The notes: generated from the letters alone by a model not told the origin. Shown: positions 46,075-48,470, counted from the first letter of the stretch. The stretch is DNA of 51,472 bases from Candidatus Moraniibacteriota bacterium (GCA_043785755.1 JAYVWV010000035.1:1-51472); one strand, 5' to 3'. Numbers and translations: made by a program.

Positions 46075-46103
46075 TTGACTTTTCTGCTTTTTTATGCTAT
46101 AAT
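46075..46103 (+). promoter_or_regulatory. Consensus promoter TTGACT-17 nt-(TGc)TATAAT
   Basis: ttgact at 46075-46080, 17-nt spacer tttctgcttttttatgc, tataat at 46098-46103. Confidence 0.7.
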
Positions 46104-46130
46104 GGACGGTTACAGAATCATCCACCGCGA

Positions 46131-46184
46131 GGTGCGGGGACTGTGACACTTGTGGGGAGAATTCGCTTTCCACAAGCCCGCACC
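46131..46184 (+). promoter_or_regulatory. Structured 5' leader: nested hairpin with a competing GNRA mini-hairpin
   Basis: GGUGCGGG (46131-38) pairs with CCCGCACC (46177-84), and the inner CUUGUGG (46149-55) pairs with CCACAAG (46170-76). The alternative hairpin CACC-GCGA-GGUG (46123-34) reuses the first four bases. Confidence 0.45.
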
Positions 46185-46214
46185 TTTACAACCAACTGAT
46201 CTAAGGAGATCACC

Positions 46215-47201
46215 ATGGCCCTCGGAAGCATTGCCGAAATCTTGGCCGACCTCGGCCTCACCTCTGCGTTTATTTCTCAGTTCTTGAGAAAGCCAGTTCC
46301 GCCCGGCACACCACCTGCCGCGGCTCCCGCTGCCAAAATCGAGGATCCGCTCAAGCAGCAGGTAGCGTCGGTGAATCCGTTGGCGCGTGACGACAAGGCG
46401 ATTCTCATCGCTGTCGACACCGCCCTGGCGCAGCTCTCAGGTGGTGCAGATCACCTGGCGAGCGTGATCCAGGTACGGGTAGCGCTCAAGGGACATCAGC
46501 GGACCGATTGGCGCAAAAACCTCACTTCGCTGACCCTGACCGAGCGGTTCAAAGAGGTACGGGTCTGGAGGACCATTACCAAATTTGAACAACTCGGCGA
46601 TCCGCTCCAACAGCCAGCAGCCGCACAACCGCGGCGGCGAGGCAACCAACAGGGCGGTCAACAGGACCCACTGCCAGGCACAGAGAAGACGGAGCATAAG
46701 TTCGAACGCCTACCCCTCGACTATGAATGGACGGCGGATGACCCTCGGGTCAAACACCTGATACTCGTGTCCGAGCTGGTAAAGAGCCAGGCAGTAGCGG
46801 GAGCCATCGCCTACCTCATCTCGGCTGGCTTCATTCAAGAGAAGTCTGTCGACGAAATAACCGCGGAATGGGCGGCGGCGGCTGGCACGAAAGTGGCCGG
46901 CGGCGCCTACCACGCGGCAGCAAAACTGGTGCTCGATCGTGACACGAACGAGCACCTCCGAAGCCTCCCCGAGGGTGATGCGCGTGAGCAAGAGCTGTCA
47001 AACGCTCTTGACCAGGGCCTTGTTGCCATCACGCAGGAGACTGAGGACCTGAAGAAAGCTCCGCTCCCGAAGTGGTTCAAGATCGCCATGGGTGCGGGGA
47101 CGACATTCCTGCTCATCCTGTGGCTGCCCTGGATCTTTAGCTTAGTGGGTGGTGCAATCGCACTACTCGGTACCGCCATCTGGTGGTTCAAATTTCACTG
47201 A
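46215..47201 (+). CDS. Hypothetical protein with Pro/Ala- and Gln-rich linkers and a C-terminal double TM anchor
   Basis: SD aaggag at 46203-08. 328 aa ending FKIAMGAGTTFLLILWLPWIFSLVGGAIALLGTAIWWFKFH. No family was recognised. Confidence 0.7.
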   Translation: MALGSIAEILADLGLTSAFISQFLRKPVPPGTPPAAAPAAKIEDPLKQQVASVNPLARDDKAILIAVDTALAQLSGGADHLASVIQVRVALKGHQRTDWRKNLTSLTLTERFKEVRVWRTITKFEQLGDPLQQPAAAQPRRRGNQQGGQQDPLPGTEKTEHKFERLPLDYEWTADDPRVKHLILVSELVKSQAVAGAIAYLISAGFIQEKSVDEITAEWAAAAGTKVAGGAYHAAAKLVLDRDTNEHLRSLPEGDAREQELSNALDQGLVAITQETEDLKKAPLPKWFKIAMGAGTTFLLILWLPWIFSLVGGAIALLGTAIWWFKFH

Positions 47202-47215
47202 TCAAGGAGATTGGC

Positions 47216-48400
47216 ATGGCAGTCGAAAGAAACACTGATGCCGAACTGGGCATCATCAAGAGTCGGCTGGAGGCCAAGGCGCACACCATCAGGAAGTGGT
47301 ACTTCCTAGGCTTCTGCTCGGTGGTGGCCTCGGCGTTGGTCTTGGTGAGTGTGGGAGCCGCGTTCAACACGGCAGGATATGCGATTGTGAACTTCGTGTT
47401 CGCCGCCGCTTTCCTGATCGTCTGGGCATACTTCACCCATCACCCCTGGGGAATCCTGGGGGCAGCCACCGTAGGAGTCGCCGATGGACTCCCGAAGGAC
47501 TGGAGTATCAATCGGTTGAAGGAGCTTTTGTCTGAGGGCGGGAAACCGTTCCCAGACTTAAGCCTCAGCAACATCGCCGATGAAGCCTGGAAGTGGATCG
47601 GGCGTTACGTCCGTATGTCGGCGCAACTGGCCTACTTCGTGACGGTGGTCTTTGTCGTCATGGGGACGTTTCACATCAAGAACCCCTACGCGATCCTCCC
47701 GATCTTCATCGTCCTGGCAGGACTTCTCATGTGGCTGGTCTTCAAAGGCTCGCCTCTCAAGTGGTACCCGCGCATCACCTCGCTCATTCTGTTCGTGTCC
47801 CTCTCCGTGTTTGTCTACAAGGCATTCGTCGGTGAGCCGCAACATGATGAACCGACGGGCGGTGTGGTGATACCGAGTCCGCAAGCCATAGCCAGCGGGG
47901 TCACCAATGTCCTCAACGGTTTCACTTCTGCCCGATGGGTGGTGGTCGACGAGTTCGACTGCGAACTTGGTTTGAAGTCTTGGCAGCAAAGCCAGGGCGT
48001 CTGCCAGAGCGTGGCCGTAGACAAAGACGGACGCTACCGTCTGGCCATCAAGTCACACAAGATGACTCTGGCCCGGGAACGAGACAAGACCGGCGGCGGT
48101 GGTATCGAGCAATTGGTCCTTCGCCCGGAAGGGATTTTCCTCGCCTACTGGAGCGGAAACCCAGACGCGGTGAGGGAGTTACGCCGACAAGCACCCTTCA
48201 ATGAGCACGTCGGTGCCATCATCGCCAGAGCTGGTCAGGCCGGCCGGTGGGCACTGGCATTCTCGCAAGAGGTGCGAGCGCCGGAGTTCGAGCTGAAGAA
48301 GGGACAGGTCATCCAGGCCAGCCTCAACCTCCCTCCGAGGAAGGATTGGTTTGATGACAACACGGGCCACTACAGCCTGGAAATAGAACGGCTGGAATAG
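47216..48400 (+). CDS. Polytopic membrane protein with a C-terminal beta-rich domain resembling the LecA/PA-IL lectin fold (tentative)
   Basis: SD aaggag at 47203-08 and ATG 47216. About 5 TM helices. The C-terminus ...HVGAIIARAGQAGRW...KKGQVIQASLNLPPRKDWFDDNTGHYSLEIERLE compares with LecA ...FCGALVMKIGNSG...[28 protein letters not shown]. Confidence 0.7.
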   Translation: MAVERNTDAELGIIKSRLEAKAHTIRKWYFLGFCSVVASALVLVSVGAAFNTAGYAIVNFVFAAAFLIVWAYFTHHPWGILGAATVGVADGLPKDWSINRLKELLSEGGKPFPDLSLSNIADEAWKWIGRYVRMSAQLAYFVTVVFVVMGTFHIKNPYAILPIFIVLAGLLMWLVFKGSPLKWYPRITSLILFVSLSVFVYKAFVGEPQHDEPTGGVVIPSPQAIASGVTNVLNGFTSARWVVVDEFDCELGLKSWQQSQGVCQSVAVDKDGRYRLAIKSHKMTLARERDKTGGGGIEQLVLRPEGIFLAYWSGNPDAVRELRRQAPFNEHVGAIIARAGQAGRWALAFSQEVRAPEFELKKGQVIQASLNLPPRKDWFDDNTGHYSLEIERLE

Positions 48401-48420
48401 CGATCCAGTGCTCCGAAGTC

Positions 48421-48470
48421 AAAAAGGCGGATACTGTGCAACACACAGTACCCGCCTTCTTTTTTTGTTT
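48421..48470. terminator. Bidirectional terminator between the plus-strand cassette and the pilin-like array
   Basis: aaaAAGGCGGATACTGTGcaacaCACAGTACCCGCCTTctttttttgtttt (15-bp stem with 1 mismatch). Confidence 0.8.

Follow-up and report, generated by a model that had tools for sequence, protein, structure and literature searches.

Allelic replacement, domain shuffling and a candidate regulatory leader RNA in a two-gene membrane cassette beside VirB2-like pilin arrays of Moranbacteria-type Patescibacteria

Much of bacterial diversity belongs to the Patescibacteria (Candidate Phyla Radiation, CPR), whose members seem to live attached to other cells, and very little is known about the molecules at their cell-contact interface or about the regulation of these molecules. 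The replacement of allelic cassettes at a fixed locus beside pilin genes belongs to a known kind of phenomenon. A comparable exchange concerns the staphylococcal agr hypervariable region, which consists of the C-terminal part of AgrB, AgrD and the N-terminal transmembrane (TM) sensor of AgrC. The present report deals with a stretch of 51,472 nucleotides (nt) from Candidatus Moraniibacteriota bacterium (GCA_043785755.1, JAYVWV010000035.1:1-51472), hereafter the window, and with a plus-strand cassette of two genes (gene 1 and gene 2, Table 1) which directly adjoins an array of 5-7 divergent VirB2-like type IV secretion system (T4SS) pilin genes. The protein families and the leader RNA of this cassette are new, and its most informative features are allelic replacement, family-wide domain shuffling and conservation of the leader RNA. 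Neither the gene pair, nor its leader, nor a Moranbacteria riboswitch was found described in the literature searched. Concerning the pilin arrays (PF18895/PF04956), the sections consulted of a survey of Patescibacteria T4SSs report 441 arrays of 2-11 genes, propose a role for them in host-strain adaptation and mention a pilin array essential for epibiotic growth in a Saccharibacterium (Microb Genom 2025, PMC12102498); neither the gene pair nor the leader is described in these sections.

Comparison of the window with a close relative, the sister strain, revealed that the cassette is partly exchanged between strains (related loci are designated below by L numbers and members of the gene-2 family by P numbers). 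The relative was represented by contigs L001 and L002, from two ENA assemblies and mutually identical over 3291 base pairs (bp), and the window allele was assembled independently in two Logan runs, each allele being thus recovered independently at least twice. By blastn, the two strains were 100% identical over 540 bp up to position 46219, including the initial ATGGC of gene 1; the segments that follow, 1707 bp long in the window and 1472 bp long in L001, displayed no DNA similarity. Identity resumed at 47927, with a flank averaging approximately 93% and a C-terminal gene-2 domain (type A, see below) that was 97.5% identical at the amino acid (aa) level; further downstream, both sequences were mostly 95-100% identical, with patches of 68-81%. 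The replaced part corresponds to gene 1 plus the half of gene 2 that carries its five TM helices. No homology was detectable between the two gene-1 alleles, and BLAST found no match between the TM domain of the window and that of the sister-strain protein P0003, the latter being approximately 40% identical to P0039 and P0043/44.

Exchange at this slot was also found in a second, independent pair of genomes. Between L008 and L013, identity was 92-98% over a region which begins at iPGM, covers nusA and the leader and ends 15 nt ahead of the gene-1 ATG; no similarity was present past this breakpoint, where L008 carries a class I and L013 a class III gene 1. Near-identical flanks around non-homologous inserts, as expected of a polymorphic allelic-replacement locus, were hence observed in two genome pairs, and the flanks of the variable segment contained no repeats suggesting site-specific recombination. 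Across nine loci, gene 1 fell into three classes with essentially no similarity between them. Class I accompanied the main TM clade of gene 2 in five loci and class II accompanied TM subclade 2 in two loci. Since strains have exchanged gene 1 and the TM domain jointly, and since the classes of the two also correspond across species, we infer that both form one co-adapted unit, the outer domain of gene 2 being a separate module.

This organization recalls the agr locus, where divergent alleles likewise replace a small gene along with the polytopic N-terminal half of the protein encoded downstream of it, between conserved flanks which include the C-terminal domain of that second protein, implying a co-adapted pair. 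However, the cassette has no sequence relationship with agr and contains no histidine-kinase domain, peptide precursor or AgrB-like protease, and its conserved C-terminal domain is predicted to be extracellular rather than cytoplasmic.

Exchange of domains was also evident on the scale of the gene-2 family. Gene 2 displayed hydrophobic helices at residues ~27-54, 55-77, 132-154, 156-181 and 186-208, followed by a soluble C-terminal part of ~185 aa, in line with a preliminary description of this DNA, made from the sequence by itself, which had proposed about five TM helices and a soluble C-terminal domain. Word-indexed searches were nearly empty (one relative with gene 2, three with the family profile) and a first genome scan for relatives gave no match. 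An exhaustive HMMER search yielded 42 relatives having the TM domain in common; two relatives were found by a scan of GTDB species representatives, in metagenome-assembled genomes of Candidatus Moranbacteria/Moraniibacteriota, and none by a scan of viral contigs with the TM profile. A match obtained with type A in a metagenome scan (L005) lay inside a polynucleotide-phosphorylase-like gene and was discarded as spurious. The N-terminal five-helix domain and its loop motif were conserved in the family, the TM domain of the window being 36-45% identical to those of P0004-P0011 from other species, and the C-terminal region was variable. At least three kinds of C-terminal region could be recognised, namely type A, with a near-invariant Cys pair, type B, a different Cys-containing domain, and tetratricopeptide repeats (TPR), found in one member; the C-terminal ends of P0037 and P0042 fell outside these three. 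Type A also occurred alone behind a single N-terminal TM helix (P0023-25, P0040-41). TM clades and C-terminal types assorted independently, as P0044 combines subclade 2 with type B and P0039 combines subclade 2 with type A. The family therefore shows domain shuffling.

The distribution of Lys and Arg residues and the hydropathy profile place the N-terminus and the conserved loop of gene 2 inside and its C-terminal domain outside, and the signal-anchor forms of type A fit this outside placement. The C-terminal domain is accordingly predicted, from these features of the sequence, to be extracellular and to contain a disulfide. Gene 2 had no match in PHROGs, PADLOC or the PDB sequences and none in Pfam at E <= 1; likewise, 37 relatives had no Pfam match at E <= 0.01 and no meaningful one in NCBIfam. 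Profile searches of the PDB associated type A with nanobodies (E ~0.1) and the TM domain with HDAC6 and a Diels-Alderase, all at chance level. The C-terminal half of type A (GSLIARxG...NLP..K.YF..N.G...VE.ER), whose motifs resemble those of the lectin LecA/PA-IL, could be aligned by hhalign with residues 60-119 of LecA (pairwise E = 0.003, 57 columns, probability 10.6%, with a LecA sequence entered by hand), which is a lead and not a family membership; 12 type A domains had no Pfam match to PA-IL (PF07828) and LecA did not appear in the PDB profile search.

Gene 1 of the window contains Pro/Ala- and Gln-rich low-complexity linkers, an N-terminal amphipathic segment and a helical C-terminal half. 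It has no signal peptide and, by hydropathy, no N-terminal TM segment, its single hydrophobic stretch being located at residues 290-325 of 328. The linkers and the C-terminal anchor had been noted in the preliminary description; the anchor may comprise two TM helices, as proposed there, or a single one, as in the orthologues, which end in one C-terminal helix of 20-23 aa. This profile is that of a tail-anchored protein, and gene 1 probably encodes one that mostly faces the cytoplasm: given the lack of a signal peptide and the C-terminal anchor, a cytoplasmic location is likelier than a surface one. Class I orthologues were found in L007, L008, L010, L012 and L017 (24-45% identity), and HQRxDWR...LTERF and DYEWTxxDPRVKHL are conserved motifs of class I. 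A word-indexed homologue search returned gene 1 alone, and no match was found in Pfam, NCBIfam, PHROGs, PADLOC or the PDB sequences; over these five collections, the initial impression that gene 1 and the TM part of gene 2 belong to no recognised family was upheld. A class I match to VAMP2 in the PDB profile search (E = 0.12) was at chance level.

Upstream of these rapidly changing genes, the promoter and leader are the most conserved element of the locus, above either protein. The leader is 100% identical in L001 and conserved in the window, L006, L007, L008, L010-L013 and L016, as well as, in a divergent form, in L017. Promoters built alike, with TTGAC, a spacer of 17 nt terminated by TG, and TATAAT, precede the leader in L006, L007, L008, L010-L013 and L016; variants of the -10 hexamer are TAAAAT in L006 and TATACT in L017. 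In the window, the 122-nt stretch 46104-46225 folded at -45.1 kcal/mol (z = -3.4 against shuffled controls). Helix P1 pairs 46109-46115 with 46141-46147 and stem B pairs 46131-46138 with 46177-46184, enclosing hairpin P3 (46149-46176). A segment further upstream, at ~46125-46130, is in competition for the 5' strand of this stem. The helices are followed by a conserved tail, TTTACAAC, at 46185-46192 and by the AAGGAG ribosome-binding site at 46203-46208.

Elements shared among the leaders are a 5' strand GTTRCAG, a segment GGTGC(C/G)(T/G)N, the 3' partner GYRAC of the 5' strand, and a further 3' partner, NNGCACC, followed by TT(T/A/G)ACAA. Two helices are supported, P1 (GTTRC with GYRAC) and stem B (GGTGCSKN with its complement). 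Over eight leaders, 90.8% of the P1 and stem B cells were paired, as compared with 28-45% in slid controls; compensatory changes were present in 13 cells and the covariation score was reached by none of 500 shuffles. RNAalifold likewise found these helices when applied to MAFFT sub-alignments of four leaders. Covariation in the four-leader set extends to a short helix, P2, of which one strand is the 5' strand of stem B; P2 and stem B are therefore mutually exclusive. An H-type pseudoknot with P1 and stem B formed together was considered and dropped as a general model: the 3' strands of both helices abut in L011, with 0-1 nt between them, so that they cannot coexist there. Constrained folding gave two folds within ~5 kcal/mol of each other in most leaders, L011 being the exception and the L008 value being unreliable owing to a mis-set state-A constraint. 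A covariance model trained on four leaders recovered the held-out leader of L012 at E = 6e-4 and those of L016 and L011 weakly, and all its hits in 154 kilobases (kb), both strands included, were at the expected site, save for a weak antisense match at the leader site of L007. Rfam 15 (4227 families) detected only three tRNAs in the window at gathering thresholds, and at E <= 10 no family matched the leader in the corresponding regions of the window, L007 and L008.

Based on these alignments, the leader is a candidate new cis-regulatory RNA with two competing folds. Riboswitch and attenuator leaders likewise lie in cis, are conserved across species and possess covarying helices which compete for a strand, with similar fold energies; unlike them, the window leader has no Rfam match, no U-tract terminator and no conserved pairing against the ribosome-binding site. 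Two additional observations concern its sequence. Two similar segments conserved across species, GTTACAGAATCA and TTTACAACCAA, are located at 46109-46120 and 46185-46195; one of them precedes P1 and the other follows immediately on stem B. Besides or instead of being structural, they might be copies of a site bound by a protein on the DNA or on the RNA. In the divergent L017 leader (~272-352), the motif of the 3' strand of stem B is present twice, as CAGGCACC and CGGGCACA, and three compensatory changes affect P1 (GTTATGG:CCATAAC); the register of this leader relative to the others is ambiguous.

The slot itself is a fixed, syntenic feature of the lineage of which only the content varies, and not an accessory island. 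The order nusA, promoter and leader, gene-1-like gene, gene-2-like gene and convergent T4SS_pilin array was found in the window, L007, L010 and L013 and, as far as the shorter contigs reach, in L001, L006, L008, L011, L012, L016 and L017. In every recovered locus except L016, a same-strand gene of 285-330 aa without Pfam match lies ahead of the gene-2 relative, and a convergent PF18895 pilin array follows wherever the contig extends far enough downstream. The upstream neighbours, where contigs cover them, are nusA, then pyrophosphatase, trigger factor, ClpP and iPGM, and approximately 20 kb around the slot are collinear, housekeeping genes included. Gene 1 and gene 2 of the window were 30-35% identical to their L007/L008 versions, as compared with 76-79% for NusA, 56-60% for the pilins and 59-64% for trigger factor and pyrophosphatase; judged by these identities, both genes evolve far faster than their neighbours. 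The preliminary description had proposed an accessory surface or host-interaction module and suggested looking for co-occurrence with pilin arrays or with the PaaX-like gene. The pair was indeed linked, beside a T4SS_pilin array, in every related locus. The PaaX-like gene was absent between nusA and gene 1 in L007, L008, L010 and L013 and is consequently no conserved partner. As for the module, its surface character agrees with the topology and Cys pair of gene 2; its status as an accessory island does not stand, and gene 1 is probably cytoplasmic.

The best available hint at a function came from locus L016. Here, the same promoter and leader drive a 327-aa Band_7/SPFH protein with N-terminal helices (Pfam PF01145, E = 7e-16, 59.2 bits for a cut-off of 23.6), followed by P0023, a single-helix version of type A, and then by the pilin array. 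SPFH proteins (HflK/C and flotillin families) are membrane scaffolds that organise partner proteins, and their presence in the gene-1 slot suggests that gene 1 and the five-TM unit are a scaffold for the displayed domain. As in L016, Band_7/SPFH operons (HflK/C, flotillin-NfeD) associate a membrane-anchored scaffold with a membrane partner bearing a soluble, beta-rich domain. Gene 1 of the window differs from such scaffolds by being anchored C-terminally and not N-terminally, and the cassette has no NfeD domain. PF01145 had no Pfam match in window gene 1 or in the class I, II and III proteins, and hhalign gave a probability of 0.3% for the class I profile against the L016 Band_7 protein.

Our data are tentatively best explained by a lineage-specific, leader-regulated module that associates a membrane scaffold with a surface domain and undergoes modular allelic exchange, a reading held at somewhat under even confidence. 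In the slot between nusA and the VirB2-like pilin array of Moranbacteria-type Patescibacteria, a near-consensus promoter would transcribe a conserved leader of ~70-110 nt, which may toggle between P1 plus P2 and the long stem B and thereby act as a cis-regulatory switch on the downstream genes. Gene 1 would be a tail-anchored partner, probably facing the cytoplasm, and gene 2 a five-TM scaffold whose N-terminus lies inside the cell, whose conserved loop is cytoplasmic and whose disulfide-containing domain of ~150 aa is displayed outside. Gene 1 and the TM domain may form one membrane complex, the scaffold, and the outer domain would be a binding module that can be exchanged on its own; this scaffold-plus-displayed-domain logic is supported by L016, where the slot is filled with an SPFH protein and a single-TM outer domain. 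The most likely role is cell-surface recognition or attachment, at the interface with a host cell, kin or phage, in an epibiont and possibly together with the adjacent pilins. Such a role fits the predicted exposure of the domain, the epibiotic lifestyle attributed to this group and the published view of pilin arrays as possible factors of adaptation to host strains.

The locus offers two membrane-protein families without described relatives, fixed beside pilin arrays, and amounts to a natural exchange experiment: near-identical strains carry unrelated scaffold halves with the same outer domain, which points to the parts that must fit together. Its candidate regulatory RNA is maintained where the downstream genes have been exchanged. 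Provided that the reading as a surface-recognition module is right, alleles could mark the host range or the compatibility of strains among uncultured CPR populations. It is a realistic prospect that the locus represents a new recognition system and its leader a new RNA class. A more far-reaching proposal, namely an undescribed CPR identity or specificity system combining a new class of RNA switch that controls a two-protein membrane complex, a cytoplasmic and transmembrane specificity half exchanged as a unit, an independently shuffling outer domain and compatibility groups for host or kin contact via the neighbouring VirB2-like pili, is unlikely, if not negligibly so.

Several observations weigh against the scaffold and surface-domain explanation. 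The variable part is cytoplasmic or membrane-embedded and the exposed domain is the one conserved at 97.5%, the opposite of classical surface-antigen variation. The co-variation of gene 1 with the TM domain is imperfect, as the TM domains which accompany the two class III proteins (L006, L013) are dissimilar. Since the entire neighbourhood of ~20 kb is collinear, the location beside the pilins provides weak evidence that the cassette is functionally coupled to them. AlphaFold2 models of gene 1 (single sequence) and of gene 2 (three-sequence alignment) reached predicted local distance difference test (pLDDT) values of 46 and 39, respectively, too low for fold comparison. Regarding the leader, the alignment comprises 8-10 sequences registered by hand with the helices in mind, these sequences split into two main clades, which leaves few independent compensatory events, and P2 is not in the same register in both clades. 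The four-leader covariance model did not find the leaders of L010 and L017 at E <= 1. Moreover, stem B is followed by a conserved UUWACAA and not by a U-tract, so that no conserved terminator output is apparent, and pairing of the freed CACCUUU with the ribosome-binding site, judged by eye, is plausible in L007 and not conserved.

Among the alternatives, it is improbable that the cassette sets specificity or exclusion (self/non-self) for the VirB2-like/T4SS apparatus, gene 1 and the gene-2 TM domain being an allele-specific recognition pair. By analogy, the locus would then resemble TraG-Eex, ConG-YddJ, IdsD-IdsE or the agr groups, and strains would form compatibility groups. The joint replacement of a small membrane protein and of the TM half of its neighbour, with both flanks conserved, outlines the same pattern as the agr hypervariable region and exclusion-group loci, and the variable parts are membrane-embedded or cytoplasmic, as are the TraG/Eex determinants. 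The module also always lies beside a pilin array, one of which holds an SLT (VirB1-like) protein, and in entry exclusion (TraG-Eex of SXT/R391, ConG-YddJ of ICEBs1) a polytopic and a small membrane protein comparably co-vary, in an allele-specific manner, next to type IV secretion genes. However, known exclusion proteins are about half as large as gene 1, the cassette has no homology to such systems (none to VirB6/TrbL, Eex, TraS or YddJ in Pfam or NCBIfam) and no relaxase nearby, and neither VirB4 nor a coupling protein is encoded within ~15 kb of gene calls around the locus. Exchange is documented in two strain pairs only, without population evidence of discrete compatibility groups, and the SPFH variant of L016 fits a scaffold role better than a recognition pair. 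The pair could also be a pilus-biogenesis or anchoring accessory required for assembly or processing of the VirB2-like pilins, analogous to VirB6/VirB8, with a diversity produced by fast neutral divergence and recombination. The invariant linkage to pilin arrays and the polytopic nature of gene 2, a property of VirB6-like proteins, agree with this, and VirB6-like proteins are reported, in the sections consulted of the T4SS survey, to be hard to detect in some Patescibacteria classes (PMC12102498). Yet 37 family members gave no TrbL/VirB6 (PF04610) or VirB8 signal in Pfam and none in NCBIfam, the cassette is convergent to the pilins and has its own regulated promoter, and linkage says little in a neighbourhood that is collinear throughout. 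In addition, near-identical strains would not be expected to carry non-homologous alleles, or an SPFH protein, in place of a core assembly factor. This option appears quite improbable.

Phage pressure provides another explanation, in which the slot is a variable hot-spot for phage defence or superinfection exclusion where membrane systems are exchanged. The complete replacement of content between conserved core flanks with a recurrent breakpoint, the very fast evolution of the cassette proteins and the nature of the slot occupants, which are membrane proteins including an SPFH protein, could all be accounted for in this way, as could composition. The compositional shift suspected in the preliminary description proved real when windowed G+C and tetranucleotide checks were run: the G+C content of the cassette was 58.9%, against 51.8 +/- 1.7% in equal-sized windows elsewhere (maximum 55.1%, z = 4.2), and its tetranucleotide distance was 0.305, against 0.211 +/- 0.027 (maximum 0.286). 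However, a high G+C content was also found in the sister allele and in the L007 orthologue (57.8% for L007 gene 2 versus 53%); because orthologues from other species are also G+C-rich, the shift is a property of the gene family and no proof of recent import. Furthermore, 12 cassette proteins had no credible match in PADLOC-DB 2.0 (one chance-level line of 12 bits appeared among the alternative-cassette proteins), the two window proteins had no PHROGs match, and no relatives occurred on viral contigs. The alternative cassettes share leader, architecture and ectodomain families, unlike unrelated defence systems. A defence hot-spot is likewise quite improbable, and the scaffold and surface-domain module is retained as the preferred explanation.

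The features of the cassette and its immediate context are collected in Table 1. Much of this anatomy had been outlined in the preliminary description and was confirmed, including the consensus extended promoter, the structured leader of ~105 nt, the strong and identical Shine-Dalgarno contexts (AAGGAGAT upstream of both genes), the 14-nt gap between the genes (47202-47215), the bidirectional terminator and, according to gene calls, the position of the cassette as the sole plus-strand unit in the right-hand part of the window. No second site of the promoter form was present within 45200-48800. Transcription is expected to start at ~46110, which, with the gene-1 ATG at 46215, gives the leader length. 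The gene-2 ATG was favoured over an upstream GTG at 47183 because relatives begin in register with it (MAERNWG...). The terminator hairpin comprises 14 pairs, one A.C mismatch and a 5-nt loop (-21.8 kcal/mol, z = -5.6); as it is preceded by A5 and followed by U7, it can act in both directions.

Table 1. Features of the two-gene cassette and adjoining genes, in window positions
Feature	Position	Strand	Remarks
PaaX_M/Cas2-like gene	45270..45938	-	PF20803, E = 6e-20; context, outside the cassette
Extended sigma-70-type promoter	46075..46103	+	TTGACT, 17-nt spacer, TG, TATAAT; 11/12 matches
Structured 5' leader, conserved	46104..46214	+	Fold z = -3.4; covariation; kept in 9-10 loci
Gene 1, class I	46215..47201	+	328 aa; from sequence and hydropathy
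Strain-variable segment	46220..47926	+	Gene 1 past ATGGC plus gene-2 five-TM domain and linker; blastn
Gene 2	47216..48400	+	394 aa
Gene-2 N-terminal domain, five TM helices then linker	47216..47926	+	Loop motif GLPKDWSxN...PDLxLS
Gene-2 C-terminal type A domain	47927..48400	+	~157 aa; two conserved Cys; predicted extracellular
Bidirectional intrinsic terminator	48424..48458	.	Common to the cassette and the convergent pilin array
VirB2-like T4SS_pilin gene array	48484..51265	-	PF18895; context, outside the cassette

The pilin array of the window, identified by Pfam matches to PF18895 (E = 3e-18 and 2e-17), likewise has mosaic variable patches between strains, the cassette genes themselves being no pilins. 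Between window positions 48424-50711 and L001 positions 2510-4816, stretches of 97-100% identity were broken by patches of 68-81%, at ~48424-48523, 48924-49023, 50024-50117 and 50518-50611. These patches fall in the terminator/intergenic region and in the apparent N-terminal variable parts of pilin genes, which suggests segmental recombination or diversifying selection in the pilins too. In other loci, the first array position, adjoining the cassette, varies in size, and some arrays open with long T4SS_pilin-domain proteins (727 aa at 7245-9428 of L010 and 441 aa at 2098-3423 of L016, both on the minus strand). A 352-aa protein of the L012 array (4546-5604, minus strand) combines an SLT lytic-transglycosylase domain with a faint T4SS_pilin signal and could be a VirB1-like component lying within the array.

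On the other side of the cassette, the PaaX_M/Cas2-like gene was found at this position only in the window lineage. Its product, in which an N-terminal hydrophobic helix precedes winged-helix-like and PaaX_M parts, may be a regulator-like protein anchored in the membrane. In other parts of the window, two sizeable minus-strand open reading frames (17553-19358, 601 aa; 32641-33954, 437 aa) had no Pfam match at E <= 1e-5, and a plus-strand gene (20874-22931) encodes a 685-aa protein with two Lamin Tail Domains and a PKD domain, which is likely to be surface-exposed or secreted.

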